IMG/VR virus record: IMGVR_UViG_3300046691_000084 | Span: 1 to 64,000 of that record | Direction: 5' to 3' (one strand) | Length of the DNA stretch: 64,000 bases | DNA from: a virus | Lineage: Duplodnaviria; Heunggongvirae; Uroviricota; Caudoviricetes | The notes under the pieces: model-generated | What the model saw: the letters and a program-made list of their open reading frames with translations, nothing else | Database searches by the model: none | What the model was told of the DNA's origin: nothing | Part shown: positions 29,377 to 64,000 of the stretch, in pieces | Numbering within the stretch: position 1 is the first letter of the stretch | Layout of the letters: each line of letters starts with the position of its first letter | Translations under genes and position numbers: made by a program

Positions 29377-29717
29377 GATCTTCCTTTCAATTCAAGGTAT
29401 GTTCGGACATTTGCTTGGATAGTTCCAGGCTTGATACTCAACAACTGTGGAACATCAAAGCGCATGGATGGTGGAAGTTTACCATCACGATGCCGGCGGT
29501 GATACCAGTAGGCATCCGCATGGTATGCATCAAGGTACTCAGCACCACCTCGGTCAGCTTGCATGTAGCGAACCTGGATAGCGATCCCGAGTAAAGTGTC
29601 ACTTGGTATACGGACACTATTGACACGTGCTAGTGTCTTACAAACGCCGGTAAATACTATGGCAAAACGGCCATGTGTATCTTTGACCATTCTTGCAATA
29701 TGTTCTTCTTTTGTCAT
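29373..29717 (-). CDS. hypothetical protein, 114 aa
   Basis: ATGA-coupled to the RNAP stop. Confidence 0.5.
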   Translation of the reverse strand: MTKEEHIARMVKDTHGRFAIVFTGVCKTLARVNSVRIPSDTLLGIAIQVRYMQADRGGAEYLDAYHADAYWYHRRHRDGKLPPSMRFDVPQLLSIKPGTIQANVRTYLELKGRS

Positions 29718-31990
29718 GAGAAGCCATACTCCGAATTTAGGAACTCACTGATATCCAGATTGCCGATCTGAACACGATTCATATCACCACCGATTTGTAC
29801 CATCAGTTTGGCAAGAGGATCGTGGCTATAAAGCTCAACGAAAGATTCACGTGTAATACGGTACAACTCAGGCATATCACCTAAGAGGCACCCGAACGAG
29901 TCATGAATAGTCGTGATAGAGAATGGACAGTTCCAGACGGTCAACATCAAGTGCGCGGCGTCAAGGCTGTGGATACAGTTTGGACTTGCACCAGAGGCCT
30001 GCTTACCCTTCGATGGGATAGACTTCTCAATGAAGCAAATCTGTAGCTGCAACGTGTTAGCATAATAGCCCGTCGATTGGCGCTCGCCAGCCGGTGGACC
30101 ATATTGCACCCATACTTTTTTGACTTCCCCTTCGGTATAGTGTTGCACCACAGGGAATCCTGTTGCGGGTACAATCCAACTGAGAAACTCACCTCTCGAT
30201 TCAGCCGCTGCGCCAGCATCTTCAAAGATGGAGAGAAGTTGCATAGGCCGCTTGAGATGACGGCGACACGTCTCATAGACCTCTCGTCCAAGATAAGCAC
30301 CCCATTTATGTTCCAGGAAGAGAAGCAATTCAATGCCATGCTTCTTCGAGTCATCGATAATCTGTTGACCTAAGCCATAAGATGTCCCTCCGTACGGCAG
30401 CGTCATCACGTTTCGCTTGACGATCTTACGCTTGTGTTTAGCATCTGTGACTTGGAGCCAATAGATTACACCAGCTTTAGCTAGTTGCTCTATGTTCTCA
30501 GTCTTGAATGCTCTAATCTGATCAGCCAAGGCCATGCGCTTCTCACTCCGAGGCTCTGATCTTTGGATCTGACGTTTTAGTTCAATTAGTTGGAGGATGA
30601 GTGATTCGCACAGTTCGATATCTTGTTGTGTGTAGTCAGATGCAATTTCAACAAGCCTATTCCAAACATGATCACCAACGAACTTATACAGATCACCAGG
30701 ATATTCCGAAGCCACAAGATTGACATGGGGTGCTGTTTCCTCATCTTTCGTAAGTGCTGCGAGGTGTTGTGATCCATTATTTGAACCATCGATATAAGCC
30801 TCAAAGGAAGACACATAACTGAAGTCCTCAAAGAATGCCCACGGCTCAAGTTCTAGTTCTCTTGCTTTAGCCATTTGCCAAAGACGCAGATTCCTTAACT
30901 CAAAGCATGCTGCAAGGAATTGCCAGGGTACATCTGCTTGCATCCAACCTTGGTTCTGCTTAGGCGACTCTGCGTAACCTATGAAAGTCTCTTCATGGTC
31001 TAGTGCCCAATCTGCACGGGCCTTGAGAGGGATTTTGTCAGTCTTGAGACCGTCGGTCCGTCCAGCATCACCCGCCCATCCACTCGCCAGAGATACGAGT
31101 AGCCAGAAGAAGCCACCCTCACCCATACCCTTGCCTTCAACACGGCGTATGAGGGCGCGCGAAAGATCTGAGCCTTGTTCATGGAGATACGCGGTATTCG
31201 GATATTTGCGGCCACGGAAGTCAAAGTAGTACCGATGGTAATACTGTTTGTGGAGAAAGCGTTTAGCAATACCTCCGATTGCTTTAGCTTCCCGAAGTTT
31301 AGTCGCCTTTGCTTCAGGATTTGATTGCTCCCAGATGTCCGCAAAGGCATCTGTTTTATTCTTAAGAGCCCATGCTTGGATGTCGTAAATTTCTTTGTTA
31401 ACACGCCATGCTACCTTCTGCGCTTCGTTTACACAATGGAAGACAATCGGGTGTTGCCCGATGTTCAATGCGTCTAAAACACTCTTGTCGTTAGTCTTGA
31501 CAAGCTTAGTGCCATCTGTATGGCGACCTTGGGTCCACTCTGGATAAGCAACTTCAGACGGCAACTTCTCGGCCTTAGTCTGAGGTACACTCTCCCACAG
31601 CTTTACAATTGCATCGTCATTCAGAACTCTTACGAGATATCCAGCATGGCCATTTGAGACAGGCCCTAGGATCACTTCAAGCAATTCAGCTTCTTCGAAG
31701 GTATATAAGATGAACCCTCCAGTTTTAGCTGCTAGTGCTGAATCTCGTTTCTGTTTCAACTTGTTACGAATCATATGACCGAGCGAGGAAATCAACTCAG
31801 GCATAGGCACTTCTACCGCTACACTCCGGCCTGTCTTAGTAGGCCTTGTGAAACCGTGGATGACTTCAATCACAGAGTCGATATAATCGGCTGCTGAGAT
31901 CGGCTTCAAGTACTTCAGAGGCGACTGCCCTGAGATCTCCAGGATCAAACGCTCTTCAAGGGATGTGACAAGCTTCTTCTTCAAGGACAT
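29714..31990 (-). CDS. T7-like single-subunit DNA-dependent RNA polymerase, compact (758 aa)
   Basis: DFRGR motif (RYYFDFRGRKY), motif A DGSNNGSQH, motif B KRNVMTLPYGG (K-x3-M-T-x2-YG), motif C IHDSFG. Confidence 0.85.
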   Translation of the reverse strand: MSLKKKLVTSLEERLILEISGQSPLKYLKPISAADYIDSVIEVIHGFTRPTKTGRSVAVEVPMPELISSLGHMIRNKLKQKRDSALAAKTGGFILYTFEEAELLEVILGPVSNGHAGYLVRVLNDDAIVKLWESVPQTKAEKLPSEVAYPEWTQGRHTDGTKLVKTNDKSVLDALNIGQHPIVFHCVNEAQKVAWRVNKEIYDIQAWALKNKTDAFADIWEQSNPEAKATKLREAKAIGGIAKRFLHKQYYHRYYFDFRGRKYPNTAYLHEQGSDLSRALIRRVEGKGMGEGGFFWLLVSLASGWAGDAGRTDGLKTDKIPLKARADWALDHEETFIGYAESPKQNQGWMQADVPWQFLAACFELRNLRLWQMAKARELELEPWAFFEDFSYVSSFEAYIDGSNNGSQHLAALTKDEETAPHVNLVASEYPGDLYKFVGDHVWNRLVEIASDYTQQDIELCESLILQLIELKRQIQRSEPRSEKRMALADQIRAFKTENIEQLAKAGVIYWLQVTDAKHKRKIVKRNVMTLPYGGTSYGLGQQIIDDSKKHGIELLLFLEHKWGAYLGREVYETCRRHLKRPMQLLSIFEDAGAAAESRGEFLSWIVPATGFPVVQHYTEGEVKKVWVQYGPPAGERQSTGYYANTLQLQICFIEKSIPSKGKQASGASPNCIHSLDAAHLMLTVWNCPFSITTIHDSFGCLLGDMPELYRITRESFVELYSHDPLAKLMVQIGGDMNRVQIGNLDISEFLNSEYGFS

Positions 31991-34820: not shown

Positions 34821-34858
34821 AATTAAAAACCCTCTCTAAGGTCGATCAGAGAGGGCTT
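34821..34858 (-). terminator. rho-independent terminator after the endolysin gene
   Basis: Perfect 8-bp stem CCCTCTCT / AGAGAGGG (34830-34837 / 34848-34855), 10-nt loop, followed on the minus strand by TTTTTAATT. Confidence 0.6.
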
Positions 34859-35871: not shown

Positions 35872-35891
35872 GGGTTAAGTTAACGGGCTTG
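35872..35891 (-). promoter_or_regulatory. motif A copy (exact) with motif C (35896-35909) adjacent
   Basis: Identical 20-mer; 137 nt upstream of the holin-like gene start. Confidence 0.45.
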
Positions 35892-51706: not shown

Positions 51707-51733
51707 CAGAGGATTAGTCTAGTGGGCTCACGG

Positions 51734-52027
51734 TCAATAACGCCGGATTATCGTACCACTCGGATGAACTCCGGGAAGGGACAATACAGTTTTCTCGATG
51801 AAATGAGCGGGCGCTTGTTCAGAATGCCCTCCATTTAGATCGTCAATGTAGTCGGCATCGTTGGTGATTTTCACACCGTCATGTTGCCAACGGCTTTCAG
51901 CATAACCAGTATCTACTGGTGTTGCATCTTGCAGCTTCTCGACGATCTTATCGAGTAGTTTAGGAGTCTTTGCTTTAACCTGAGCATCGAACTCCTTCTG
52001 GAGATTGTTCTTAAGATTAATCTTCAT
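51734..52027 (-). CDS. hypothetical tail-module protein, 97 aa
   Basis: Between GT and the TMP. Confidence 0.45.
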   Translation of the reverse strand: MKINLKNNLQKEFDAQVKAKTPKLLDKIVEKLQDATPVDTGYAESRWQHDGVKITNDADYIDDLNGGHSEQAPAHFIEKTVLSLPGVHPSGTIIRRY

Positions 52028-52721
52028 AGGTCTAACGTGTCGCCTCCGCTTGCTTTAGTCATCCAGTTGAACACTTGGGAACCTCTCAGCGTATTCATGT
52101 TCGTACCAACCGCATTGGTTGCGGTCAGGTCACCATAAATTGCCTGAAGACTTGGGAACAAAGCTGTAGACTTCTCTTTGACACCTTGTGCCTGGATAAG
52201 TTTAGCTGCACGATCATCGTCACGCCATCCTACAGGACGTTTGGCAAAGTATGCCTGCCACCCTAAGAACTGCTCATACGGCATCTCTAGAACTTCCTCT
52301 AGAGGCATCTTGAGCTGATAAGCTAGGTCAAATATCGCTAGCTCTTCGTCGCTTAAGATTAGTTTCCCGCTTCATCGGCCTTCTTAGCGCCAACGCCGGA
52401 ATAGTCCATGATGGCTGCCGACAGTTCAGACAGGTCATCGAGGGCGAAGGTACTGAAGTCTTCATCAGTCAGATCTGCAGCACCTTCGGCGGCACTACGG
52501 ATGACCAGCTTCATCACGTTCATAGAGGCGTTTTCATCGCCTTCAGCCGATTTGGCCAATTCCTGAATCTTAGTAACATCACCAAGACTCAGTTTCTGAA
52601 TTTTCATCTCACCGTCCATGAAAGGAATGGACTTGAGAACTTTCTTACCAACCAGAGATTTCATACCGGACATGCTATTCACCTTTAGTGATGGGATTTT
52701 GAGATTGTCAACCATGATCAT
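52024..52721 (-). CDS. tail assembly chaperones G (52359..52721, 120 aa) and GT fusion (via -1 frameshift into the frame of 52024..52308)
   Basis: Acidic G-like ORF ends ...GCG GGA AAC TAA; the downstream ORF lies in the -1 frame and is open back to 52373, overlapping the G end. Confidence 0.6.
52362..52368 (-). other. programmed -1 ribosomal frameshift slippery heptamer G-GGA-AAC (X XXY YYZ)
   Basis: Plus strand shows GTTTCCC at 52362-52368, which is GGGAAAC on the coding strand two codons before the G stop; compare lambda G-T GGGAAAG. Confidence 0.55.
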
Positions 52722-52960
52722 TCGCCTTTGAAGACATCAGCGTAAGCAGCTTGGAATTCATCCAGCTGGCGCTTCATCTGATGCAACAGGGATAGTGCTT
52801 GGAAACATTCGTTAGACTTTTCAGGGTCATTTTCGAATTCCTTAGCACGATCGAAAGTTTTCTGAATGCTGATATCCACGCTACGCCGCATGTGCTTAGC
52901 AGTGGTTCGCAACACATAACCTTTCGTAAAAGGTACAGCTGCTTTTTCTTGATTAGCCAT
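52718..52960 (-). CDS. hypothetical protein, 80 aa (tail module)
   Basis: ATGA-coupled upstream of G. Confidence 0.45.
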   Translation of the reverse strand: MANQEKAAVPFTKGYVLRTTAKHMRRSVDISIQKTFDRAKEFENDPEKSNECFQALSLLHQMKRQLDEFQAAYADVFKGE

Positions 52961-52974
52961 GATAGGCTCCTAAA

Positions 52975-53004
52975 TAGGCAAGAATGACCCTCCCGAAGAA
53001 GGGC
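52975..53004 (-). terminator. attenuator-type hairpin with UUCG tetraloop after the major tail protein gene (CCCUUC-UUCG-GGAGGG)
   Basis: 6-bp stem with a G-U at 52988-53003, U-rich tail. Confidence 0.4.
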
Positions 53005-53085
53005 TATTCTCGAATCACCAATAGAGGCATGCTGAGGTGGCCGCATGTTAAAGAGACTTAGCCAAGGCCTCCCTCTATAGTAGAC

Positions 53086-53685
53086 TTAGATGGTATAAGC
53101 ACCATAGAAGTTCGACTGGATGGTGATGGTGACGGTCGCAGTAGTAGCGTCAGTCAGCTGAGGGGTAACTTGCAGTGCTTCGATCTTACCAATCCAGTAG
53201 TATTGGCTGTTTTGAACAGTACCAAGACCAGCAGAAGTGGAAGCATAAGCAGTTGCACCTGCGGCAGTCGGCAGACTGTTCATCAGGGTGAATCGGAAGA
53301 CGTATTGGTTACCGTCACCGACCATGTTACCTAGTACGTTACCGACATCTCGCGACCAGTCAGCAGGTACGAAGTTCAGAGTGATTTCCATCGAAGGAGC
53401 ATCAGACTGACCTTGGATCTGACGGGAAGTCGAAGAACCGTAGGTAGGTACGTTTACAACGTTAGCAGGAGTACCGACAGCTGGGAACTCACGAACGTTC
53501 ATGATACGAACGAAGGTGTTAGCTGCTTTGGTACCGCCAACAGTGGCGATCTCGGTAGCAAACAGAGCTTGGAACTCTGCAGCAGTATCGAGAGCAGCCA
53601 GAGCCGATGGGGACAGCGGAGCTACCGGAGTAGATACCGCCAAGTCCGAGAACATCGAAGCGCCGATCGAAGTGATATGTGGCAT
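53086..53685 (-). CDS. major tail protein, 199 aa
   Basis: Position just upstream of G/GT; Ala/Thr/Ser/Gly-rich beta-type composition. Confidence 0.55.
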   Translation of the reverse strand: MPHITSIGASMFSDLAVSTPVAPLSPSALAALDTAAEFQALFATEIATVGGTKAANTFVRIMNVREFPAVGTPANVVNVPTYGSSTSRQIQGQSDAPSMEITLNFVPADWSRDVGNVLGNMVGDGNQYVFRFTLMNSLPTAAGATAYASTSAGLGTVQNSQYYWIGKIEALQVTPQLTDATTATVTITIQSNFYGAYTI

Positions 53686-54092
53686 TATGAAACTCCGTAG
53701 TACTTGAATGGAATTGTGTAACTGGAACGGAACAATGTAGCGTTCGCCTTATCTGTCCCTATGGGAGTCAGACTACCACCTTGAAATTGTGTAGTACACC
53801 CTTCCACGGTCTGTAAGCTCTTGAACGCTAGATATTGCTCCAGCTTATCCGCAATCACACTGGCTGGTCTAGGACCGTCACCAGATGGCGTGAATATGTC
53901 AATGATAAGCATGCCAGATACTGACATCTTATTTACACCAGGACCATTGGCCAGGACACTCACACGGATGTAAGTTGTCCAAGCTTGTGGAGAAATATAG
54001 TTCGAGGGTTGAGTCTCGATTAACTCACTTCTCCATGCTCCAGATGCGAATACTGAGAAAATGTCGTCCTCAGCTGCTGTGAATTTACCCAT
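53685..54092 (-). CDS. tail completion / head-tail joining protein, 135 aa
   Basis: Position and size. Confidence 0.45.
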   Translation of the reverse strand: MGKFTAAEDDIFSVFASGAWRSELIETQPSNYISPQAWTTYIRVSVLANGPGVNKMSVSGMLIIDIFTPSGDGPRPASVIADKLEQYLAFKSLQTVEGCTTQFQGGSLTPIGTDKANATLFRSSYTIPFKYYGVS

Positions 54093-54094
54093 GA

Positions 54095-54451
54095 TTAGCC
54101 ACCCGCGCGGTAGGCCTCGGCAACATAAATGAAGCCAGTGCCTTTAACGATTGGGCCAACGCTCCAAGTCTGTCCATCGAAAGTTATTTTGTCAATGCCG
54201 CTAAGATCAGGCACATCCTTGGCGTGAACCATGAATGTCTTTTTAATGACTTTAGAGTCAGCCTTCTGCTTCTCACCATCAAACACAACAATCTTCGCAG
54301 TAATAGATTGACCAAGGAAATCCTCAGGCACCTTAGAACCGAAATTGAACGAACCTGCAATCTTCACTTGGAAGACAGCATCCAGTGCCAGGTCTTTTAC
54401 TTGTCTGAAAGCCTGTTTCAATTGGCTATCAATAAGTGCGGCGTAGGCCAT
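54095..54451 (-). CDS. head-tail adaptor protein, 118 aa
   Basis: Position and size. Confidence 0.45.
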   Translation of the reverse strand: MAYAALIDSQLKQAFRQVKDLALDAVFQVKIAGSFNFGSKVPEDFLGQSITAKIVVFDGEKQKADSKVIKKTFMVHAKDVPDLSGIDKITFDGQTWSVGPIVKGTGFIYVAEAYRAGG

Positions 54452-54927
54452 TAGTTAGCCCTCCACCAAGACTGAGCACCATTATTGATGAGCATTGGAC
54501 GAATGAAGTCCAGAACATACTTAGGAATCTTAGGAGCCGCTCCGATGTCGGTAAGAGTGATCGTACCGAGTTGCAGAGACTTTACAGATCCAGTGTTATC
54601 CAGAAGTCCATCGTTATTGAGCAAGTGATAAGCAAGCTCATAGGTCGCCTGAACCAAGCGGTAAGGCGGGGTGTCCCCAAAGGAAACCTCACGCCCCAAC
54701 CTAGGATCAAAGTAACGACCACACCGAGGGAAAGCCATCAATTGGGTCTCGCTCACAGCGTAACCGGACCAAGTACGATTATCTAGCAGCATTGATGCGG
54801 TGACCAATGACTGCTCTTTCTGCGTACTAGGTGCATCAGTCCATGCAGCAACGTCAAGACGATCAGCGAAATAGAGATCCGCTTCGTCAACAGTTGCATA
54901 CGCGTTAACGCCTTTTTGGATAGCCAT
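54451..54927 (-). CDS. head-tail connector/adaptor protein, 158 aa
   Basis: Position immediately after the capsid gene. Confidence 0.45.
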   Translation of the reverse strand: MAIQKGVNAYATVDEADLYFADRLDVAAWTDAPSTQKEQSLVTASMLLDNRTWSGYAVSETQLMAFPRCGRYFDPRLGREVSFGDTPPYRLVQATYELAYHLLNNDGLLDNTGSVKSLQLGTITLTDIGAAPKIPKYVLDFIRPMLINNGAQSWWRAN

Positions 54928-54945
54928 GAGCGAATCCTCCAGTTA

Positions 54946-56124
54946 TCAGCTATGGAAGACAGGCAAGATGCCCAGGGACAGAGCCGAAGCAGACTTACGA
55001 GCCCAAGTACCAACGGAAGCGTCAGCAGCGGTAGCTGCAGTAAGAGCCTTCGGAACACCACCTTCGATAACGCCTTTGTAGTCAGCATCACTCGGGAAAG
55101 CTTCTGTAGCACCCGCCCAGTTGTAACCAGCAGGAGCCAATACATAGCCCCAGCGATGCCAGATAGTGGTAGTACCACCACCTTTGTAGGCAGCTGCGCG
55201 ACGTTCGATTTCAACTTCTTCCGGTACAGACAGGTTCTCCATTGCGAGAGCACCAGGCAGCACGATGAAGGAAGTCTTGGTACCGACGATGTCAACACCG
55301 CCACCACCATTGATCTTAGCCAGTTCAGCAGAGCTCAGAGACTGAGTAGCACGAGTCTGGATCAGACGGAACTTACCCTGGAAGATAGTATCGAACTTGA
55401 TATTACCATCCTGCACTTTATCTTGGTCTACCAGGTTGGCAGAACGCAGAGAAGCGAAGGTCTCAGGAGATACAACCAGGTAGGCGTATTCTGGTTCATG
55501 GTCTTTGTAAGCCATACCGAAGGCTTGCAGGAAGGCTTCAGCACGCTGAGCGCCTTGAGCAGCAGCAGTAGCGGCGATGACAGGCTTCGCAGTACCGATA
55601 TCAACATAGAAGCCATAACGCTTGTCAGTTGGATCGTTGTCGAAGTTCTGACCACCAAGACCAGCTTGACCGCTAGCAGCGGCAGCACCCATCAGGGCTT
55701 CAGAGATTGCTACACCTTTCAGCACAGCCAGGATACCGTTGTGTTCGTCCTGAGCACGGTGCTCAGCGAAGTCACGACCGATTTTAGACAGGCCATCTTG
55801 TTGGGTAACAACTTGTTGCAGGTTTACTTTCTTACCACCGTAGGTACGTACCGACTTGATGTAAGTCAGGTAGTCCGATGCGTAGTCAGAAGTAGTACCA
55901 TCGGTTGCATCTGTCAGAGATGCAACGTTGATGGTAGGGTTCATCGGTTTGAACCAACGAACTTGACCAATGAAGCTCTCGGTGGCCACGTCGATATCAG
56001 GGTTAGAACCTACGATACCAGTCGAGGACAGCTTACGAGCATTGGTGTACTCTTCATCGCGGTACGCAGTAATAGCAGCCTGCAGAATGAAGTTCGAAGC
56101 ACCAGCTGGAGAGGTGTTAGACAT
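54946..56124 (-). CDS. major capsid protein, 392 aa
   Basis: Follows a coiled-coil scaffold gene; size and Ala/Gly/Thr-rich composition. Confidence 0.6.
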   Translation of the reverse strand: MSNTSPAGASNFILQAAITAYRDEEYTNARKLSSTGIVGSNPDIDVATESFIGQVRWFKPMNPTINVASLTDATDGTTSDYASDYLTYIKSVRTYGGKKVNLQQVVTQQDGLSKIGRDFAEHRAQDEHNGILAVLKGVAISEALMGAAAASGQAGLGGQNFDNDPTDKRYGFYVDIGTAKPVIAATAAAQGAQRAEAFLQAFGMAYKDHEPEYAYLVVSPETFASLRSANLVDQDKVQDGNIKFDTIFQGKFRLIQTRATQSLSSAELAKINGGGGVDIVGTKTSFIVLPGALAMENLSVPEEVEIERRAAAYKGGGTTTIWHRWGYVLAPAGYNWAGATEAFPSDADYKGVIEGGVPKALTAATAADASVGTWARKSASALSLGILPVFHS

Positions 56125-56140
56125 TTATGTCACCTGTTCA

Positions 56141-56821
56141 TTATCGGCGGCCAGGTAATTTACCTTCCGCAGCGAGTTTCAGTACTTCCGCTTGAGACAA
56201 CTCTGAGAGTTTCTTAGGAGTCGTATTAGAGGAGTTGGAATTTGTAGTGCCCAAACCAGAACCAGACGATTGCTTCGCTTTGAAAAGGAACGCATTGTCT
56301 TCGATTTCAGCAAACGCTTTGACGAAATCTTTGATGGCCACACCAGTCTTGTGGACCCATTGACCTTGCTCGTTCTGAACCAGTTCGGCTACGATTTCCC
56401 GACGAGCCATTTCAAGGCTACGATCATTGCGGAAAGGCATTGCTGCCAAAGCGGCTGTCAGTACATTATCACGGCTCAGAGCAGTGTTATTGGACTTCAG
56501 CTCGTTGTTCTCGCGTTCCAGTTCTTGTACACGCAGATCATAGGCTTCACGATGCTTGCCTTCATCTTCGAGTCGCTTGATCTCGGCTTCACGTTCTTTC
56601 TTCTTGAAGCTGTCGACAGTCCCCAGAGCCTCGTCGCGGGCTTTGTAGGCTTTGTCGAGCTTTTCTTTCAGACCCTTCAACTCAGTACCAGTCGCAGCGT
56701 TGATCAGCGCTTCCAACTCTTCCTTCGTTTGTGGGAGTTTCAGCTCATTAGCAGCTTTTGCAGCCGCTTCTTGTGCCTTCTGCTCATCGGTCTTGTTGTC
56801 ATCATTGGTTTCGGTAGTCAT
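56141..56821 (-). CDS. scaffolding protein, 226 aa
   Basis: Glu/Lys/Ala/Leu-rich predicted coiled coil directly upstream of the capsid gene; motif A promoter-like element 106 nt upstream. Confidence 0.55.
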   Translation of the reverse strand: MTTETNDDNKTDEQKAQEAAAKAANELKLPQTKEELEALINAATGTELKGLKEKLDKAYKARDEALGTVDSFKKKEREAEIKRLEDEGKHREAYDLRVQELERENNELKSNNTALSRDNVLTAALAAMPFRNDRSLEMARREIVAELVQNEQGQWVHKTGVAIKDFVKAFAEIEDNAFLFKAKQSSGSGLGTTNSNSSNTTPKKLSELSQAEVLKLAAEGKLPGRR

Positions 56822-56926
56822 TTTCTTTCCTCATGAGTACGACTCATAAGACACATATCACAGATATGTCTCAGTAAGCTCAGAAATAGGCGCACCCGAG
56901 TATGACAACGCGAAGTTACCATACAA

Positions 56927-56946
56927 GGGTTAAGTTAACGGGCTTG
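56927..56946 (-). promoter_or_regulatory. motif A copy (exact), 3 nt after the stop of the MuF-RNAP gene
   Basis: Identical 20-mer. Confidence 0.45.
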
Positions 56947-56948
56947 GG

Positions 56949-59900
56949 CTAGCCAACTCCGTACCACCCGTAATCAGTCTTGAAGCCTTCAGGGACTGAT
57001 TGTAAGATGTCTTTCTCAGTCAGAATATCCTCAACTCTGAGAATCTTCCCACCAACACGAGAGCGACCAACAACTGGAACAAGTCCAATGTCAATTGCTT
57101 CGTTCAAGAATTTGTCATACAGATCCTGTGGAAAACCACGTCCTTTCATCTCTTCAAGCGTCATCAGGATGATATTGTTTTTGAGCATATCAGCATAGAT
57201 CTCACGAAGAGCTTGCCGACCAGCTAGCATGTCTGCCGCATTGGCAAAGAAGGCGTCATGGATAGTCGAAGTGGGAATATTGTTGGCCTTACCCCATAGA
57301 TGGAAACGTTTCACGATCACTGCGTCATTGGAGTGGTTACCGTTTACTGCAAAAGCTGTACGAGCTTTCGTAGCATCAGCAATGTCGTTAATCTTTCCAT
57401 CTTCGTTCATCAGTTGATCCCACCAGCTTGCTTCAGTCTTTTGAGCAACTTGCAAGATGTTGGTAGACCAATGTCCAAATTTATCTTTGTACATCAGCTT
57501 CTCTTCGAACGATTGTGTGAAGTTCTGCTCGATCGTCTTACCGTCAAAGTTAACCCAAGGGACGTTTGTCCAGGACTTGGGCAGCTTGTTAGCAGTGCCA
57601 ATCTTAAGGTCAAAGAGCTTGATCTTTTTCTCGATCTTCGCGCCAGCGATTGTGATACTTGGCTTCAGCTCGATCTTGAAGACCGAACCGCCAGCACGAC
57701 GATTGTCTGGAGCTTTGACACCTAGAAGCATATCAGCAAGGTTATTGCCAGGGTTGAAGAATGAGAATCTCTTAATCAACTTTTCGGTAACTGGTTCACC
57801 GGCTTTAAGCCCCAACAAGCGACTGACGTAGTCGGGCAATACAAAGCCCTTCTTACGATCACCTCTCAGTTGAGTCTCGAGAACGGTCATCCAATCCCAA
57901 CCAGCTTTTGAAGGCTTCGCGTTGCTCAAGAATGCTTCTGCAAGGCGCCCAAAGTACTTGGTGAAGTCTTTCAGGATAGGCACTTGCTCAGCAAGATACT
58001 CACTCATAATCTTTGCAATGGTGCTGAAGTCATCAGGTGTCACGACCTTGTCATAGTTCAAGGACATCTTTTCGACCAACTCACGGGTCTTCGGATCAAG
58101 GAACCATAGCTGTTCCAAAATGTCATCACCAGGATCGATACCTTTGTTGAATACATCTTTGACATCCTGCCTGAGCTGCTTGAGCATTTCAGCGCCTTCA
58201 GGATCATATCTTTCAACTCGGGCGAAACGTGCACTGATTTCGTTCAGTACAGTGTCTCTATCGGAAGCCTTCACAACGAGCGTAGAGGTGTCTTTGCCAA
58301 GCACTTTGGCCAGCTTACCTTCAACGTTCATGATACCAGTGCGTTCACCAGCACCATAGAAGGTCACCATATTCTGAGCCTTTGCGGCCTTACGTAAGTC
58401 CTTTTCAGACAAACCAAGTTTAAGATTCAACTCACGGAAACGGGGATCATTGTATGTAGATGCAGCAATCTCATCGTACAGACGACGTTTCTGATTCGTT
58501 GGCACCACATTAGATAACTCTGCTAGCTGCTTGTTACGTGTAGTCAGGGCGATGATCTGAGCACCAGATGAGGACGCATCCTGCTCAAGAGCTACAGCAA
58601 TCTTATAGTCCTTGAGTGTCTCTAGAGCAGCTGTTGAATAGTCACCCACAAGGTGTTTATCAATCTTTGCAGTTTCAAGTGCGAATCGGAAGAACTTACC
58701 AAGCTCTTCACCATCAACTTCAGCGGCAAGAGGATGTTTCAGAACGAACCGCAGATCATTAGGCTTATTGCGAATCATCGCATTGCCAATAGCTACCATG
58801 TCCTGACGCCACTTCTCAGCGATCTTCTGACGGCCTGTGATGGTCAGGGAATTAAAACGACCTTCAAGCTTATCACTCAAACCACCAAGAAAGGCACCAA
58901 TCTGATCTTGGAAGTCAAGGAACTCAGCAGAGCTAAAGTTCTTAGCCTCGGCAGTATTCAGGAAGGGACGGAAAGTCTCACCCGATTGAGGACTAATAAG
59001 ACCACGATCGTAAATACGAGCACGATGGTCCACAAAAGCATGGTTACTGAAAGCAGCGTCTTTGCCACGCAACCACTCCATCGTTTTAAAGCGTTCATAA
59101 GCATCACCCCTGGAAATGATATATTTCCGATACTCATTCAAACCGTTATACAGCTTGGCTTGACCTTTATCATCTTCGAAGTTCAGCAGTCTGTTGGTGA
59201 AATCGTAGAAGTCAGGATCGACTTTGTACTGAGTCTTGGAAGCCCATGTCAGTGCATCTACAATGTCCTTGTCAACAAACTCAACAGGGAAGTCACCAAA
59301 GGAGTTCGTTGAGGTGATTGGAATGCGAGTATCCTCAAGACCAAGCGCTCCACGATCAATCCAGTAGGTCTTGTAACCTTCACGGAAGATCAATTTGTTC
59401 TTTGGTTCTGTAACAGCAACACGGAGGCCGATGTCCACCATCCTCTGAAGACGTGCATACTTCTGGATCCGAGGATCAACGATACGGATGTTATAAGCAA
59501 GGGTATCGTAGTATGGACCAAAGTACTGGCTGCTTAGACGAGACTTCATGCGACGCTTCTGAACACCAAATGTCTCTACTTCGTAAATCTTGTCAACATT
59601 GGGTGATTCCAGAATAGACATGCCAAGATCATACCAAGCACGCCTCGCACCGTTTCTGTTAGCGAGATTATAAAGATCCCTACCCAAAGCCACTGCCAGT
59701 TGGTCTCTGTCAGGAGTGTCAGCGAGACTGAGCCTATTGGCGAACTTAAGGTAAAACTGCCTGATTTGACTTTCGCTAAGACGACCATAAATGAGAGGAG
59801 CAGTGGCGGCAAGACGAGCATCAAGAGTCCCACGGAGCTCATCAGCAATCTTTGGCGCGACCGTGTCTTCCCAATTATTACGTTCAAGAATGTTCGGAAT

Positions 59901-61619
59901 GAAGTTGTCATGGAGATCCTGCAATTGAACTGAACCCAATACAGGGTCGATGTAGTTGTCTTGTAGTAGCTTCTTTAAGACATCAGAGTCCTTACGGATG
60001 TTCGTCTCAATAGCATCTGAGATGTTCATCACATCAAACTTGATTTGAGCTTGGTTGACTGCCTTATAGTTAGTCCAGAGCTCGCCATTCTGACGCTGAC
60101 GCCCAAAGGTAATACGGAGGTTATCCGTGATCACTGCTCGTTCGTTAGCACCGAGACGTTCATCCAGGTTGCCTACAAAGTTAGCAATAAACTCCTTATC
60201 CCTGGGTAGCAACAGATCACTCTGCTCTACTAATCGAAGTTGGTTATTCAACACAGTCACGTTAGGCTGATATAAACGGACATCATCATATCGGCCAGTT
60301 ACAGGGTTGAACTTCATGTGCTCTTCTTTCGGAGGGATAGTCAACACACGGTTCTTGGTAGCCTTCTTGTTGCCAATTAAGGCACCACGGTAGTTCGTCA
60401 AGCTCAACGTGCCGTTCAAGTCGGTAGCTTGCAGGATATAGTAGTCGGTCAATGTCTGAGCCAACTCCTTGTTCCGAATGAAGTCGTCAGGCGTAGTAGC
60501 CCAAAGCTGCATTGCATCAAGTTTCTCTTTTGCTACGGCGAACTTCCTGGTGTTATTGGGAATCGCGTATCCAGCATCTGTCAAAGAACGGAGTTCACGG
60601 ATGCCGAGTGAGTTGCCCTCAGGGTTGGTGAACTGGTCGAGTGTGAGCTGTCCGCTTCTAAAAAGTTCAACCTTTTGATAGTCACCCAAGTGCCGAAGCT
60701 GAATGTCACCTGGCTGTTTAGCGAGCCAGTCATTGTAAGACTCTCGCAACGGCGTCTGACCATCGTAGAAAGCGACCTGCTTAGGCGTTAGCTTAGCAAT
60801 GTTCTCACGACGCACGTTAGCAACACCCTCAAGAGCAGCCATATCTGACCAGGATTTGAAGACTGGAACAGTAGTAGAGCGGCACCCATAGTGAGCAGGA
60901 GGCAACATGTCAACTTGGGAGATTGCATAAATTTTACCATCCCGATAGACACAAATTGGAGTTGTACGGCTATCTAGAACAGAAACATATTGCCAACCTA
61001 CTATCGCTTTCTCGTTAGCCTTGTACACAGCATGGTCAGCTTGAGTAGCGACGGAAGTGATACCAGTCGTAACGAGCGTTTTCGATTGAGCCCTGGAGAT
61101 AGTGTGTACATTTCCTTTGCGGACTTCCAAGGCGATGTCGTCGACTGTCTTGTTAGCAGCGACCCCACGACGGATGACTTGCTCAATACGGATTCGTTCT
61201 CCAGTTGAGACACCAGCCCAACCGGCAGCCATATTCTTGTTGCCGAACAGTGGCTTGTTGAGGACGAACTCTTCTGCGACAGCTTTGGACGGCCGCTCAG
61301 GATTCCAGATCTTGCCAACGGCAGCTTCAACGTTTTGATACGCATAAGAGACCTGATCTCCAAATAGATCCAACAAAGACTTCTTGTGGATATTGTAAGT
61401 ATTGCTATAAGTCTTGAAGACCTCTTGATCAACTTCCTTTAAGAGTTGTTTCTGGCCATAAGGCGTTAGATTACTCTTCCTAAGAAGCTCATCAAGACGC
61501 ACAGCATGACCATCAAGCTCCAACTCCACTTTGCTTTGCACACGTCGCTCATACAGACGAAGCATTGCAGCCCGGTCTACGACTTTATCATAAATCTGAG
61601 TGTTAGCGTTGATAGTCAT
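56949..61619 (-). CDS. MuF-like head-morphogenesis domain fused to a single-subunit (T7/N4-type) RNA polymerase domain, 1556 aa; putative virion-packaged RNAP
   Basis: aa ~130-255: LDSRTTPICVYRDGKIY...PPAHYGCRSTTVP (Phage_Mu_F/SPP1 gp7 signature). aa ~860-1556: D-x-R-x-R-[IV]-Y motif (FVDHRARIYDRGLISPQSG), motif A ALEQDASSSGAQ, motif B RKAAKAQNMVTFYGAG (R-x3-K-x3-M-x-T-x-YG), motif C TIHDAFF. Sits between portal and scaffold. Confidence 0.8.
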   Translation of the reverse strand: MTINANTQIYDKVVDRAAMLRLYERRVQSKVELELDGHAVRLDELLRKSNLTPYGQKQLLKEVDQEVFKTYSNTYNIHKKSLLDLFGDQVSYAYQNVEAAVGKIWNPERPSKAVAEEFVLNKPLFGNKNMAAGWAGVSTGERIRIEQVIRRGVAANKTVDDIALEVRKGNVHTISRAQSKTLVTTGITSVATQADHAVYKANEKAIVGWQYVSVLDSRTTPICVYRDGKIYAISQVDMLPPAHYGCRSTTVPVFKSWSDMAALEGVANVRRENIAKLTPKQVAFYDGQTPLRESYNDWLAKQPGDIQLRHLGDYQKVELFRSGQLTLDQFTNPEGNSLGIRELRSLTDAGYAIPNNTRKFAVAKEKLDAMQLWATTPDDFIRNKELAQTLTDYYILQATDLNGTLSLTNYRGALIGNKKATKNRVLTIPPKEEHMKFNPVTGRYDDVRLYQPNVTVLNNQLRLVEQSDLLLPRDKEFIANFVGNLDERLGANERAVITDNLRITFGRQRQNGELWTNYKAVNQAQIKFDVMNISDAIETNIRKDSDVLKKLLQDNYIDPVLGSVQLQDLHDNFIPNILERNNWEDTVAPKIADELRGTLDARLAATAPLIYGRLSESQIRQFYLKFANRLSLADTPDRDQLAVALGRDLYNLANRNGARRAWYDLGMSILESPNVDKIYEVETFGVQKRRMKSRLSSQYFGPYYDTLAYNIRIVDPRIQKYARLQRMVDIGLRVAVTEPKNKLIFREGYKTYWIDRGALGLEDTRIPITSTNSFGDFPVEFVDKDIVDALTWASKTQYKVDPDFYDFTNRLLNFEDDKGQAKLYNGLNEYRKYIISRGDAYERFKTMEWLRGKDAAFSNHAFVDHRARIYDRGLISPQSGETFRPFLNTAEAKNFSSAEFLDFQDQIGAFLGGLSDKLEGRFNSLTITGRQKIAEKWRQDMVAIGNAMIRNKPNDLRFVLKHPLAAEVDGEELGKFFRFALETAKIDKHLVGDYSTAALETLKDYKIAVALEQDASSSGAQIIALTTRNKQLAELSNVVPTNQKRRLYDEIAASTYNDPRFRELNLKLGLSEKDLRKAAKAQNMVTFYGAGERTGIMNVEGKLAKVLGKDTSTLVVKASDRDTVLNEISARFARVERYDPEGAEMLKQLRQDVKDVFNKGIDPGDDILEQLWFLDPKTRELVEKMSLNYDKVVTPDDFSTIAKIMSEYLAEQVPILKDFTKYFGRLAEAFLSNAKPSKAGWDWMTVLETQLRGDRKKGFVLPDYVSRLLGLKAGEPVTEKLIKRFSFFNPGNNLADMLLGVKAPDNRRAGGSVFKIELKPSITIAGAKIEKKIKLFDLKIGTANKLPKSWTNVPWVNFDGKTIEQNFTQSFEEKLMYKDKFGHWSTNILQVAQKTEASWWDQLMNEDGKINDIADATKARTAFAVNGNHSNDAVIVKRFHLWGKANNIPTSTIHDAFFANAADMLAGRQALREIYADMLKNNIILMTLEEMKGRGFPQDLYDKFLNEAIDIGLVPVVGRSRVGGKILRVEDILTEKDILQSVPEGFKTDYGWYGVG

Positions 61620-61634
61620 GCTATACCTTCTTGT

Positions 61635-62093
61635 TTAACGTTTATTCTTTCGGACAGAGCGCTTACCGAAAGCTTGACCGCCTTTAGCGCCGATGTAGCC
61701 AGCAGCAGCACCGATGGCAAGACCAGGAGCAGCGCCTCTTGCAGCACCTTTCAGAGCACTTGGGAGATCGCCGTGGATGCCACCCTGGACAAGATAGCCA
61801 ACAGCCGCGCCATAAGCTGCAGTACTCAGGGCACTGCCAATGACAGAGCCTGTGGTATGACGCTTCTGAGCAGTCTTCGATTTGAGTGCGCCTGCATGAG
61901 CACCGGTAGCAGCTGCACCAGCCATGCCAAATAGAGCACCACCAGCAGCACCAGAACGGAAGCCACGTTGATCAGACAGATGCTTACCCATAGGCTTGAG
62001 GCCACCGCCATGAGCCGCGTTATGGTTACCCTTCATAGCTGCTGACCGTTCAGGATCCTTAGCAGCGACACCACCTTTCTTTTTAACTGCCAT
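61635..62093 (-). CDS. Gly/Ala-rich basic protein, 152 aa (glycine-zipper-like)
   Basis: Between portal and MuF-RNAP; low complexity. Confidence 0.45.
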   Translation of the reverse strand: MAVKKKGGVAAKDPERSAAMKGNHNAAHGGGLKPMGKHLSDQRGFRSGAAGGALFGMAGAAATGAHAGALKSKTAQKRHTTGSVIGSALSTAAYGAAVGYLVQGGIHGDLPSALKGAARGAAPGLAIGAAAGYIGAKGGQAFGKRSVRKNKR

Positions 62094-62095
62094 AA

Positions 62096-63715
62096 CTACG
62101 CTCCAGGCTTCTTAGCCGGTTGTTGGTTCTGCATTTCCATTTGCTGCTGCAGCTGGCCATTCTGCATTACCGATGCAAAGTCAGCACCAAAGCCCTGATT
62201 CTGCATCAGAAGCTCTTGATCTTTAGTGATCTCTTCTTGGCCTTTCTTGTCATCGTAATCTGGTTCAAGCATGTCGTTATGTTTCAGGACATTCAGCCAG
62301 ATAGACCGAGGGATGAGCCCAGACTGGTACCATTCAGTAGCCAGACGGAGCCAATCAGCACCAAGAGGAGTAGGATTGAAATCCGTCGACAGGCTAAAGT
62401 TGACATCGTTCACCGTCAATTCAAGTTCATAACGCCAGTTGATCATGAAGCAGATAACTGCAGCCATGGTCGAGCTGACCTTACTGTTGAGCGTACCCAA
62501 CTGAGCCGTCTGAGAAGCATTACGAAGCTGCAATGCAACACCCGATTGATCAGTCTCAGGCGACAGCATCCGGATACCCAACTTCGCCATTTCTTCAATA
62601 GACGAAGCGATTGCCCTATCCATATCAGCAAGAGCTTCAGTAGGTGTCTTGAGGATGTCAGCTTTGTCTTCCTTACCGAGTCGGATCCAAGAGCCAAGAC
62701 CTTTGTTGACAACTTCATCGAAATCTGTATCACTCATGTCAGTGCAGATGATCGGCGTGTACGTAGCAGCACCATAGAGCAAATGGTTACGGCGGCTGAT
62801 TTTGTTGTACAAGCTGACTTCTTTATCAACAATTGGTGCAATGATTGGAGTGATCGGTGTGACCGAACCATTCAAAGGCCAAGCAGGGATGAACGTAGCA
62901 CGCTCACCATTGATCAGGATCGCCTCATTAGTATCAACGAGTTCAAAGATATTACCATGAGCAGATGCTTGTTCATTAGTTCGACCAGCAGTCACTTCGA
63001 CATTTGTAGCTGGTGCTTGAACCTTGTAAGTACGGATCTGGTAGAAACCGCCAACAATCTCATGAACCCAAACAGTTGGGATGAGTGTAGGGTGAAACTC
63101 ACCTTCAAGATATTCTTCAGAGAGGCCAGATGTAATGACCATCGTCAGAGTATCAAGACCGAGGGAATTCTTGGACATCCGCCAGTTGATAACAAAGTCG
63201 GAATCCCAGAGGACAGGAAATGGCTTATGTTTCTTCGCTATCTCAGGGTCTTCATCTTCTTTTACAATCGGATAGTCAACATAGACCCATGCACGGCTGG
63301 ACTGGATCTCTTCCCACAAGGCAGCATCTAGAAAGTTCATCAAGGACGAATCATCATGACCAAACTGGTTGATGATCCATTCATGAGCTTCTTTCGGGAC
63401 ACCATCAGGAAGAGTCAATTGGGGCTTCTTCCGAAGAAGGCCACCTACAAGCATACGCGAGTATTGTGCACAAATACCAGGCAATTCAGCTTCCGCTTTG
63501 AAGAAATTGAATTGCGATTGAGTCATACTCGGCGAGAAAGGGATCAATAGATTCGAGAATGCTAGTACGTCAACGTAGGAATCATGGTCTTTAACCGCAC
63601 GCTCCCCGTTACATACAACTCGGCATCGATCCCAGATCTCTTTGATGGATTCGTATGCAGCACACGGATCATTTACCTTCTTGACCTTCGACTGGGCAGC
63701 GTTAACGGTAGACAT
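62096..63715 (-). CDS. portal protein, 539 aa
   Basis: Size and position directly upstream of the MuF-domain gene; acidic Gln-rich C-terminus. Confidence 0.55.
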   Translation of the reverse strand: MSTVNAAQSKVKKVNDPCAAYESIKEIWDRCRVVCNGERAVKDHDSYVDVLAFSNLLIPFSPSMTQSQFNFFKAEAELPGICAQYSRMLVGGLLRKKPQLTLPDGVPKEAHEWIINQFGHDDSSLMNFLDAALWEEIQSSRAWVYVDYPIVKEDEDPEIAKKHKPFPVLWDSDFVINWRMSKNSLGLDTLTMVITSGLSEEYLEGEFHPTLIPTVWVHEIVGGFYQIRTYKVQAPATNVEVTAGRTNEQASAHGNIFELVDTNEAILINGERATFIPAWPLNGSVTPITPIIAPIVDKEVSLYNKISRRNHLLYGAATYTPIICTDMSDTDFDEVVNKGLGSWIRLGKEDKADILKTPTEALADMDRAIASSIEEMAKLGIRMLSPETDQSGVALQLRNASQTAQLGTLNSKVSSTMAAVICFMINWRYELELTVNDVNFSLSTDFNPTPLGADWLRLATEWYQSGLIPRSIWLNVLKHNDMLEPDYDDKKGQEEITKDQELLMQNQGFGADFASVMQNGQLQQQMEMQNQQPAKKPGA

Positions 63716-63718
63716 AGA

Positions 63719-64000
63719 TTAGCCTCGCAGAAGACGTTTCAACTCAGCACGGGACATCTCAGTCTCTTTGCTGGTTGGGATATGACGAACAAGCAACATA
63801 TCGCCTTCGCCAGCCATGATATGCAGATCGCACGGACGGATTTCAAAATCAGGGCCACTAGTTTCGCCATTTCCAGTGCGCGCTTCTTGAGGCGCCGGTT
63901 CAGGGGCAAGCTCTGGTGTCGGCACAACTGGCGTTTCGACCAGAGGCACCACAGGCGCGACGACAGGGGCAATCTGCGTGATCGGCGCGATGTCGCCCTG
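63719..64000 (-). CDS. 3' end of an upstream gene running off the window (possibly terminase large subunit C-terminus)
   Basis: Open frame continuing past the window end; identity is not determinable from about 80 codons. Confidence 0.25.
   Translation of the reverse strand, partial: QGDIAPITQIAPVVAPVVPLVETPVVPTPELAPEPAPQEARTGNGETSGPDFEIRPCDLHIMAGEGDMLLVRHIPTSKETEMSRAELKRLLRG

Follow-up and report, generated by a model that had tools for sequence, protein, structure and literature searches.

Only a handful of phage groups are known to deliver RNA polymerases (RNAPs) from the virion: N4-like podoviruses, phages of the crAss-like and phiKZ-like jumbo types, and Thermus phage P23-45. The virion RNAP of coliphage N4 (Schitoviridae), gp50, is a giant of about 3500 residues with its own injection and encapsidation domains, and Iyer et al. 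(2017) found N4-like virion RNAPs confined to N4-like phages (PMC5512222). The Thermus siphovirus P23-45 makes two RNAPs: gp96, a virion enzyme fused to the tail tape measure; and gp64, which is not a virion component (PMC10770324). In the published model, the virion enzyme transcribes the pre-early genes, including the gene for the free RNAP, and there are two promoter classes (PMC10770324).

MuF proteins are head components, and the MuF module is fused to varied enzymatic domains believed to enter the host cell as effectors (PMC5512222). The minor capsid protein gp44 of staphylococcal phage 80alpha, present at about two copies per capsid, has been characterised as an ejection protein that protects the genome ends and acts after ejection (PMC7290940). 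The cargos listed for MuF fusions are toxins, RNases, ADP-ribosyltransferases, RelA/SpoT, and similar domains, and the literature searched makes no mention of RNA polymerase among them.

The window (the whole 64,000-nucleotide stretch of phage DNA analysed) encodes a protein with the layout of a MuF carrier, an N-terminal MuF module followed by a C-terminal enzymatic cargo domain, in which the cargo is instead an RNAP (Table 1). At about 1200 residues this cargo is far larger than its carrier. Full-text literature searches found no paper describing a MuF-RNAP fusion, in agreement with the original prediction that the architecture was undescribed. The combination does appear when precomputed Pfam annotations are consulted, in hundreds of proteins already in databases, and so is unrecognised rather than unseen.

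Table 1. Positions of the fusion gene, its domains and motifs, and other features of the window
Feature	Residues	Coordinates	Strand	Remarks
MuF-RNAP fusion ORF		56949..61619	minus	1556 aa plus stop; continuous from ATG to stop
MuF / SPP1 gp7-type minor head (head morphogenesis) module	1-350	60570..61619	minus	phrog_241 over aa 1-347, E=2e-59
Pfam Phage_Mu_F core	145-250	60870..61187	minus	includes LDSRTTPIC and most of PPAHYGCRSTTVP
Complete single-subunit (T7/mitochondrial-type) RNAP fold	380-1556	56952..60482	minus	model
DHRARIY	864-870	59010..59030	minus	T7 D421-W-R-G-R-V-Y427 (T/DxxGR region)
Motif A, DASSSGAQ	1014-1021	58557..58580	minus	D1014 = T7 D537, catalytic Mg2+ ligand
Motif B, RKAAKAQNMVTFYG	1076-1089	58353..58394	minus	register T7 R627...K631...M635...Y639-G640
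Clade-specific insertion, fingers/palm	1236-1348	57576..57914	minus	pLDDT <50; BLAST alignments break at 1241/1352
HSND	1429-1432	57324..57335	minus	T7 H784-S-Q-D787
Motif C, IHDAFF	1453-1458	57246..57263	minus	H1454-D1455 = T7 H811-D812
Portal protein gene		62096..63715	minus	upstream neighbour; phrog_145 E=2e-43, and DUF4055
Glycine-rich 152-aa ORF		61635..62093		between portal and fusion genes
Scaffolding protein gene		56141..56821	minus	downstream neighbour; phrog_206 E=6e-8
Major capsid protein gene		54946..56124
Free T7-like RNAP		29714..31990	minus	758 aa; presumed non-virion partner; PF00940 E=2e-62
Motif-1, CAAGCCCGTTAACTTAACCC (coding strand)		56927..56946	minus	2 nt past fusion stop, about 105 nt upstream of scaffold ATG

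The MuF and polymerase domains

Both domain assignments are supported by profile, profile-profile, and structure-based tests. The N-terminal MuF/SPP1 gp7 signature had been predicted from short strings, all of which were located (LDSRTTPIC at residues 215-223, PPAHYGCRSTTVP at 240-252), and the PHROG match is joined by one to Pfam Phage_Mu_F (PF04233; 44 bits against a cut-off of 29.6, E=4e-11), covering profile positions 3-111 of 112. In an alignment of 38 sequences, the invariant residues of the Cys...PPxHxxCRS signature are C223, P241, H243, C246, R247, and S248; a looser form, C...PxxHxxCR, is found in 247 of 251 homologues. The AlphaFold2 model of residues 1-480 has a pLDDT of 83.5, with a sole weak stretch at residues 350-356. 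A structural search with the MuF model gave no significant match in the PDB.

With phmmer, the whole protein as a single sequence retrieved only one spurious match from the PDB, and a family profile was needed for the polymerase. That profile finds T7 RNAP at E=1.6e-8, with the DxRxRxY motif, motif A, and motif C in register; hhalign to T7 RNAP gives a probability of 96.9%. Library searches return RNA_pol (PF00940; 40.6 bits against a cut-off of 22) and the RNA polymerase family phrog_414 (E=3e-20). The AlphaFold2 polymerase model (pLDDT 80) has a right-hand RNAP fold that resembles family A DNA polymerases less closely than it does RNAPs, and each of the top 50 Foldseek matches is an RNAP of T7 or mitochondrial origin (best E=9e-17). 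Thus the searches assign the C-terminal half exclusively to the T7-type RNAP family, which bears out the prediction of a polymerase. The domain is larger than first thought: the fold spans about 1100 residues (from about 380/470 to 1556), not about 700.

The fused enzyme resembles T7 RNAP in its fold and in its catalytic motifs, which follow the order D421xRxRxY, D537, R627/K631/Y639, H784, and H811-D812. It differs in overall sequence (about 17% identity), in its large insertions, in a spacing from motif B to motif C that is roughly doubled, in its fusion to an N-terminal virion protein, and in having its gene in the head module rather than in an early region. The claim that the motifs keep the order and spacing of T7 therefore stands for the order, and only in part for the spacing: motif B and HxxD lie 353 residues apart, against 157 in T7, because of insertions. 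The insertion at residues 1236-1348 is absent from Naomviridae-type homologues.

The residues that matter for catalysis are retained. By both sequence and profile alignment, D1014 and D1455 are in register with T7 D537 and D812. Across the 38 aligned sequences (29-92% identity), D864, R866, R868, Y870, D1014, H1429, D1432, H1454, and D1455 are invariant, as are the motif B residues K1077, K1080, M1084, Y1088, and G1089, with K1080 and Y1088 corresponding to T7 K631 and Y639. R1076, the counterpart of T7 R627, is present in the window protein and is not invariant across the set. Judged from sequence, a catalytic site whose residues are kept over this range of identity is under selection.

The original prediction spoke of a T7/N4-type enzyme. 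The first part of that label is apt and the second is not: the enzyme is T7/mitochondrial-like, and hhalign rejects homology to the mini-vRNAP domain of N4 gp50. The analogy with N4 is therefore functional only. The proteins also differ in build, the fusion having 1556 residues and a MuF module at its N terminus in place of the giant N4 protein's dedicated domains.

Spread of the fusion, its gene neighbourhood, and a second polymerase

Two database searches returned 402 and 154 protein clusters (more than 500), nearly all with both PF04233 and PF00940. An exhaustive single-sequence scan of 1.84 billion representative proteins gave only 162 matches. In every full-length match the alignment starts at residue 350 or later of the matched protein, so each has an N-terminal extension, and the six most divergent full-length matches all have an N-terminal MuF. 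Among these scan matches, including the most divergent, no full-length family member without a MuF part was seen. Of 251 full-length homologues, 234 retain the Cys/His motif of MuF together with the complete set of RNAP motifs; a pattern search left a few very divergent relatives without recognisable motifs. The fusion is thus one polypeptide, kept across a large and deep clade of siphovirus-like genomes of 60-90 kb.

Its carriers include hundreds of uncultured phages, the roseophages DSS3_VP1 and DSS3_PM1 (Naomviridae; 29% identity to the window protein), and EBPR siphovirus 1 (56%). In these named phages the gene product (QGH74596.1 in DSS3_VP1) bears no label beyond 'minor head protein-like protein', 'head morphogenesis', or 'head protein'. 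The homologue in EBPR siphovirus 1 is annotated as two genes, gp47 and gp49, with an HNH endonuclease gene between them. Homologues of about 1690 residues carry insertions of 110-240 residues at about positions 990 and 1110. Inteins at the active site were considered and rejected: there are no intein termini and the positions are loops, so these are inserted domains. Pelagibacter phage Kolga is a relative through its MuF domain and its free RNAP; its MuF protein has 633 residues with no detectable RNAP part, and the fusion is therefore not indispensable in this type of phage.

The gene order in the window is portal, 152-aa ORF, MuF-RNAP fusion, scaffold, and major capsid protein. The single 1556-aa ORF and its two named neighbours are as predicted; the 152-aa ORF, however, intervenes on the portal side, and the strand, previously unstated, is minus. 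In the relatives L004 and L006 the fusion gene directly adjoins the portal gene, with the scaffold next, and in DSS3_VP1 and EBPR siphovirus 1 it likewise directly follows the portal gene and precedes the scaffold. The gene for 80alpha gp44 occupies the same interval between portal and scaffold, and the two proteins have their N-terminal Pfam domain in common. MuF-carried polymorphic toxins typically pair a toxic or host-modifying cargo with an immunity gene alongside; here the cargo is an RNAP, and the gene next downstream of the fusion is the scaffold gene. The 3211-aa tape measure in the window matches only tape-measure families in PHROG, and no polymerase family.

The free T7-like RNAP of 758 residues noted at the outset is borne out by its PF00940 match, and a counterpart exists in DSS3_VP1, the nearest cultured relative. 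Among phage proteins its best match is to the 'RNA polymerase' of DSS3_VP1, and the gene is conserved and syntenic there. The free enzyme is highly divergent and has only motif-level similarity to the fused RNAP, which rules it out as a recent duplicate of the fused enzyme. In the window its gene is placed after a block of small genes.

Comparison of the window with DSS3_VP1, a cultured phage of Ruegeria pomeroyi, gave 21 ORF matches at 24-52% identity, with syntenic structural and replication modules; the scaffold is 49% identical to the product of the DSS3_VP1 gene at the equivalent position. On these alignments, the gene sharing shows relatedness, not necessarily membership of the same family. 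Naomviridae are reported to be abundant in seawater and nearly invisible to metagenomics (PMC12669031), and the family description nowhere mentions RNA polymerase. DSS3_VP1 has a dCTP deaminase of the dU-DNA pathway, with no homologue in the window, beyond which lie about 14 kb of the roughly 78 kb genome, its ends included. Pfam scans of 20 candidate window ORFs yielded neither a zinc-dependent dCTP deaminase nor an HD-family dTMP phosphatase, so a dU-DNA lifestyle like that of DSS3_VP1, as the reason for needing a virion RNAP, is unsupported in the window.

A proposed role in the virion

A MuF protein, of the kind packaged in capsids, is here joined to a complete T7-type RNAP; the phage therefore probably injects its own transcription enzyme along with its DNA. 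We consider it fairly likely that the gene product is a virion RNA polymerase on a MuF carrier, ejected for early transcription. From MuF biology and from the position of the gene we infer that it would be both packaged and ejected.

In outline, the fusion protein would be made late, alongside the structural proteins. Its MuF module would dock it at the portal or the procapsid interior, and a few copies would be packaged with the DNA. At infection it would leave through the tail with the genome or just before it, necessarily in an unfolded or extended form; by analogy with N4, the passage of a protein of about 175 kDa through a siphovirus tail channel is plausible. Once refolded, it would use phage-specific promoters to transcribe whichever genes enter first, with no need of host RNA polymerase. 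Among those genes, or switched on through them, would be the one for the free RNAP, and that enzyme would then take over middle and late transcription. The ejected enzyme, as it transcribes, may also help to draw the genome into the cell.

This two-polymerase logic would have its direct precedent in P23-45 (PMC10770324). Each phage is a siphovirus with an RNAP fused to a structural protein and a second, free phage RNAP. However, the P23-45 enzymes are two-barrel RNAPs of the cellular type and the carrier is the tape measure, whereas both window enzymes are T7-type right-hand RNAPs and the carrier is MuF. On balance, we lean towards regarding the fusion as a third, independently evolved class of virion RNAP, of T7/mitochondrial type and carried by MuF, in a widespread clade of siphoviruses, the Naomviridae among them, that would be independent of the host for transcription from the start; the loops near residues 990 and 1110 would then be slots for extra co-delivered domains.

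An alternative is that the polymerase is never delivered and works only in the producing cell, with the MuF module keeping it at the portal or procapsid during the late stage of infection. Its task there might be to transcribe the late operon, starting at the neighbouring motif-1, or to link transcription, or a pause in it, to the maturation and packaging of DNA; Zhang & Studier are said to have described, in 2004, a role of this kind for T7 RNAP at the concatemer junction. The fusion gene does lie within the late structural operon, with motif-1 immediately downstream of it and ahead of the scaffold and capsid genes, and no early promoter class has been linked to the fusion polymerase. Against this, a dedicated free RNAP already serves intracellular transcription; MuF-type proteins whose genes lie between those for portal and scaffold belong to the capsid, and one of them, 80alpha gp44, acts after ejection; and a soluble role in late transcription poorly explains why no full-length member without MuF was seen. 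Such confinement to the producing cell is unlikely.

RNAPs of the T7 type draw DNA into the cell and supply primers for T7 replication. Another possibility is that the fusion protein is delivered with a main job other than promoter-specific mRNA synthesis: a DNA-import motor, a maker of replication primers, or a protector of genome ends. Delivered primases are common among the polyvalent proteins of mobile elements (PMC5512222), 80alpha gp44 offers a case of end protection (PMC7290940), and no early promoter was identified in the window. We give this reading a rather small chance, a little below that of an undelivered polymerase.

That the polymerase domain is a catalytically dead relic, kept in a structural head protein only for its bulk or to bind DNA, is very improbable. 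The modest PF00940 score (40.6 bits), the large insertions, and the few divergent relatives in which the pattern search found no motifs could be read this way; a dead domain, however, would have lost the metal- and NTP-binding residues, which are invariant at 29-92% identity and kept in 234 of 251 homologues. That assembly error or a sequencing frameshift joined two adjacent genes, as the two-gene annotation in EBPR siphovirus 1 might hint, can be dismissed almost entirely, given that the ORF is continuous, that hundreds of contigs obtained independently from a range of sources share the fusion, as do the complete DSS3_VP1 and DSS3_PM1 genomes, and that the EBPR split falls inside the polymerase, at about residue 1110, away from the MuF/RNAP junction.

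If the fusion protein is indeed an ejected RNAP, it represents a new solution to virion transcription assembled from two very familiar parts, and shows that a MuF module is able to bear some 1200 residues of cargo. It would also provide a testable account of how gene expression begins in abundant and poorly understood environmental siphoviruses; a possible source of orthogonal polymerase/promoter pairs for biotechnology; and a corrected annotation for hundreds of entries labelled head morphogenesis only. The existence of a cultured member, DSS3_VP1, makes the prediction directly testable.

Candidate promoters

Two motifs stand out in the window: motif-1, CAAGCCCGTTAACTTAACCC; and motif-2, TGGTATCTTATATG. 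Window motif scans found no tie of either to the fused or the free RNAP, and no conserved motif was found within 300 nt ahead of the free RNAP gene, where motif-1 and motif-2 are both absent. Promoters of the sigma-70 type appear depleted among the structural genes, with 4 found where shuffled sequence gave 13.5 +/- 3.5, consensus scans of this kind being only weakly informative. Motif-1, the clearer of the two, precedes late genes, those for scaffold and capsid. It is 20 nt long and intergenic; the window has three exact copies of it and a single variant, where chance alone would give 0.01. Its position just after the fusion gene is conserved in L006, L004, and L001, with drift in its sequence, which makes it a candidate phage-RNAP promoter for the scaffold/capsid operon.

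A MuF domain and an RNA polymerase in one gene

Nearly all plausible genes of the window (46% GC) lie on the minus strand. The original prediction of a single 1556-aa ORF is borne out, and every signature string quoted from its product was located (see table). The gene had been placed between the portal and scaffold genes: both flank it, but a 152-aa glycine/alanine-rich ORF intervenes on the portal side. This small ORF has no homologue at the related loci, where portal abuts the fusion gene directly.

The N-terminal part is, as proposed, a MuF domain: Phage_Mu_F is found at aa 145-250 (Pfam; 44 bits, cut-off 29.6), and aa 1-347 match "head morphogenesis" (PHROGs; E=2e-59). Four sequence comparisons agree with the predicted T7-type RNA polymerase (RNAP) in the C-terminal part: Pfam RNA_pol PF00940 (40.6 bits, cut-off 22); PHROGs "RNA polymerase" at aa 861-1099 (E=3e-20); T7 RNAP in the PDB, matched by a profile of 38 fusion-family members (E=1.6e-8); and hhalign, at 96.9% probability to T7 RNAP over 449 columns. 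The predicted motif A and motif C aspartates align with the T7 motifs (family/T7: DsRgRvY/DWRGRVY, DASsSgaQ/DGSCSGIQ, HsnDA...iHDAf/HSQDG...IHDSF). The likeness had been drawn to T7 and N4 enzymes alike; only the T7 half stands, since N4 mini-vRNAP scores 0.15% against the same profile, as an hhalign probability, and membership in the N4 gp50 family is rejected. Pfam matches assign the protein to PF04233 at its N-terminus and PF00940 at its C-terminus.

Structure prediction, proposed as a check, points the same way. AlphaFold2 models aa 380-1556 with confidence (pLDDT 80, pTM 0.75), and the model's top 50 PDB matches in Foldseek are all T7 or mitochondrial RNAPs (best E=9e-17). Together, the profile and model matches argue that the C-terminal three quarters form a full T7/mitochondrial-type RNAP, beyond the catalytic core alone. 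A model of aa 1-480 reaches pLDDT 83.5, and the sole weak stretch between the parts is 7 residues (aa 350-356). As modelled, the two parts make a single unbroken chain hinged at a short stretch, rather than a pair of proteins joined by a long linker.

Invariance was counted over 38 sequences (29-92% identity), with T7 residue numbers verified by an alignment check. R1076, which matches T7 R627, is found in this protein but is not invariant across the set. The MuF Cys/His signature and every polymerase motif are kept in 234 of 251 full-length homologues. Motif order equals that of T7, as claimed, but the spacing agrees only in part: motif B to HxxD spans 353 aa versus 157 in T7, an excess explained in part by a clade-specific, poorly modelled insertion (aa 1236-1348).

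Positions of genes, protein motifs and other elements (L, related loci; P, homologous fusion proteins)
Feature	Position	Strand	Remarks
Portal gene	62096..63715	-	upstream in transcription direction
152-aa ORF	61635..62093	-	between portal and MuF-RNAP genes; weak Gly-zipper match
MuF-RNAP fusion ORF	56949..61619	-	ATG start, 1556 codons
LDSRTTPIC	aa 215-223		
PPAHYGCRSTTVP	aa 240-252		
DHRARIY	aa 864-870		invariant D864, R866, R868, Y870 (T7 D421, R423, R425, Y427)
DASSSGAQ	aa 1014-1021		invariant D1014 (T7 D537)
RKAAKAQNMVTFYG	aa 1076-1089		invariant K1080, M1084, Y1088, G1089 (T7 K631, M635, Y639, G640)
HxxD			invariant H1429, D1432 (T7 H784, D787)
IHDAFF	aa 1453-1458		invariant H1454, D1455 (T7 H811, D812)
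Inserted domain	after aa ~990		P0025, P0037, P0069, P0074, P0109
Inserted domain	after aa ~1110		P0096
Listed with insertion hot-spot cases	L001 9359-10039		
Scaffold gene	56141..56821	-	downstream of fusion gene
Major capsid protein gene	54946..56124	-	downstream of fusion gene
Tape measure protein, 3211 aa	42071-51706	-	both ends match tape-measure profiles
Motif-1 copies	3605-3624, 27426-27445, 35872-35891, 56927-56946	-	
Motif-1 counterparts	L006 13925-13940, L004 ~14698-14713, L001 ~11510-11526		after MuF-RNAP stop
Motif-2 (GCGGGRAAWWTGGTATCTTATATGRAA), three copies	3088-3120, 16876-16908, 34794-34826	-	
Scaffold-RBS hairpin	~56833-56850	-	
Same hairpin in relatives	L004 ~14800-14815, L002 ~10445-10460		

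Relatives and the second polymerase

Separate searches of a 5.8-billion-protein collection returned 402 and 154 fusion-family clusters, nearly all of 1450-1700 aa with both PF04233 and PF00940, from contigs reaching 60-90 kb. When 1.84 billion cluster representatives were scanned exhaustively with phmmer, only 162 matched; in every full-length match the alignment starts at least 350 residues into the protein. All six of the most divergent full-length matches carry an N-terminal MuF, and no full-length member without one was seen in the scan or among these six. The database name, if any, is "SPP1 gp7 family putative phage head morphogenesis protein". Just three phages of 50,697 deposited phage genomes carry the gene: EBPR siphovirus 1 (56% identity), and the roseophages DSS3_VP1 and DSS3_PM1 (Naomviridae; 29%).

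Some relatives have extra domains of 110-240 aa at two polymerase loop hot spots. One resembles ParB/sulfiredoxin (DGLHR), and the same type occurs at either hot spot in different proteins; an intein identity was rejected. An HNH endonuclease gene interrupts the EBPR siphovirus 1 homologue at about aa 1110, the second hot spot.

The whole structural and replication modules are syntenic with DSS3_VP1 (identity 24-52%), in the order portal, fusion, scaffold, capsid, connectors, tape measure, small genes, free RNAP, SSB, DNA polymerase, exonuclease, primase/helicase and ribonucleotide reductase (RNR). The order includes the second, free T7-like RNAP claimed for this genome. Its best relatives are the DSS3_VP1/PM1 "RNA polymerase" and that of the Pelagibacter siphoviruses Kolga and Aegir; in the 633-aa MuF protein of Kolga a polymerase part is not detectable. 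About 250 nt before this free RNAP gene begins, a strong terminator-like hairpin is followed by T13 (32240-32268, minus strand); from there to the gene (region 31991-32293, minus strand) there is no recognisable conserved motif.

The architecture had been thought undescribed, and a full-text literature search, with coverage short of all journals, found no account of a MuF-RNAP fusion; prior mention is possible. The domain pair is already visible in precomputed Pfam annotations. RNA polymerase is never mentioned in the Naomiviridae paper, nor in 2025 papers on Naomiviridae and dU-DNA. Iyer et al. (PMC5512222) state that only N4-like phages have N4-like virion RNAPs.

Proposed virion delivery and its rivals

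MuF proteins are head components known to carry enzymatic cargo (PMC5512222). The 80alpha gp44 gene lies between portal and scaffold; its product, of which each capsid has about two copies, functions once it has been ejected (PMC7290940). Thermus siphovirus P23-45 has a virion RNAP fused to the tape measure, a second, non-virion RNAP among its pre-early genes, and two promoter classes (PMC10770324). These analogies suggest virion delivery and an early-transcription function: the fusion protein would be expressed late, brought into the procapsid by its MuF module, and ejected along with the DNA; it would transcribe early genes independently of host RNAP, and then hand over to the free RNAP. In proposed function it would resemble P23-45 gp96 and N4 vRNAP, though not in gp50 family membership. 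Polyvalent and polymorphic-toxin proteins share the "MuF plus cargo" architecture but differ in cargo type. From the sequence, the recurrent motifs described below count as support for this scheme, as does the scarcity of sigma-70-type promoter-like sites in the structural module (51000-64000; 4 versus 13.5 +/- 3.5 in shuffles).

A purely intracellular role, in late transcription or packaging-coupled activity, is possible; given the free RNAP, it leaves the absence of MuF-less full-length members unexplained. Alternatively, the protein might be delivered yet act as motor, primase or end-protector, a reading that overlaps with delivery for early transcription. A dead polymerase domain is contradicted by the invariant active-site residues, and an assembly artefact is excluded by hundreds of independent contigs bearing the fusion. 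For a phage-transcription specialist the fusion should be surprising; it is widespread, and its probable function, suggested by analogy, is directly testable in cultured phage.

Candidate promoters and other elements

Motif-1 (20 nt; CAAGCCCGTTAACTTAACCC, coding strand) occurs intergenically in three exact copies and one variant (0.01 expected by chance), upstream of the scaffold gene, the SSB gene, the 35735 gene block and the 3565 gene. One copy begins 2 nt past the MuF-RNAP stop codon; that position is taken by CCCGTTAACTTAACCC, CCCGTTAAATTAACCC and ACCGTTATTTTAACCC in relatives whose proteins are 92%, 74% and 56% identical, respectively. Conserved place with drifting sequence is the pattern of a co-evolving phage promoter, making motif-1 a candidate phage-RNAP promoter. 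The second conserved motif, motif-2 (TGGTATCTTATATG, also written GCGGGRAAWWTGGTATCTTATATGRAA), occurs three times in the window, and a partial motif-1 copy at 3125 adjoins it. Motif-2 might represent another class of promoter, or else a host promoter of the extended -10-like type; its copy at 34794 has a hairpin plus T-run upstream, and the other two a short CCC..GGG inverted repeat. Neither motif is assignable to the fusion RNAP or the free RNAP, and neither precedes the free RNAP gene.

A perfect hairpin (ATGAGTCGTACTCAT), which may serve in RNA processing or in the control of translation, directly precedes the scaffold ribosome-binding site. It is kept in relatives, and the DSS3_VP1 version (GTAAGTTGTACTTAC) differs by compensatory changes.

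The tape measure (3281 aa in a relative) implies an unusually long tail; its PHROG matches are tape-measure families only, with no polymerase family among them. DSS3_VP1 encodes a dCTP deaminase two genes upstream of its DNA polymerase; the gene just upstream of the window's DNA polymerase encodes a 319-aa DUF3310/nucleotide-kinase-like protein (25793-26752). The window yielded neither a deaminase nor an HD phosphatase, and so gives no sign of a dU-DNA pathway.

About six small paralogous genes form an array (12700-15350, minus strand) with a period of roughly 390-430 nt, broken by a single gap of 804 nt; they have a conserved segment of 29 nt in common, and no member tested matches a Pfam family. 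Between the exonuclease and primase/helicase genes lies a SegE-type GIY-YIG homing endonuclease gene (21729-22226, minus strand) with a homologue in DSS3_VP1. Finally, a 1282-aa tail fibre-like gene contains a tandem array of 30-nt (10-aa) repeats (37352-37844, minus strand).
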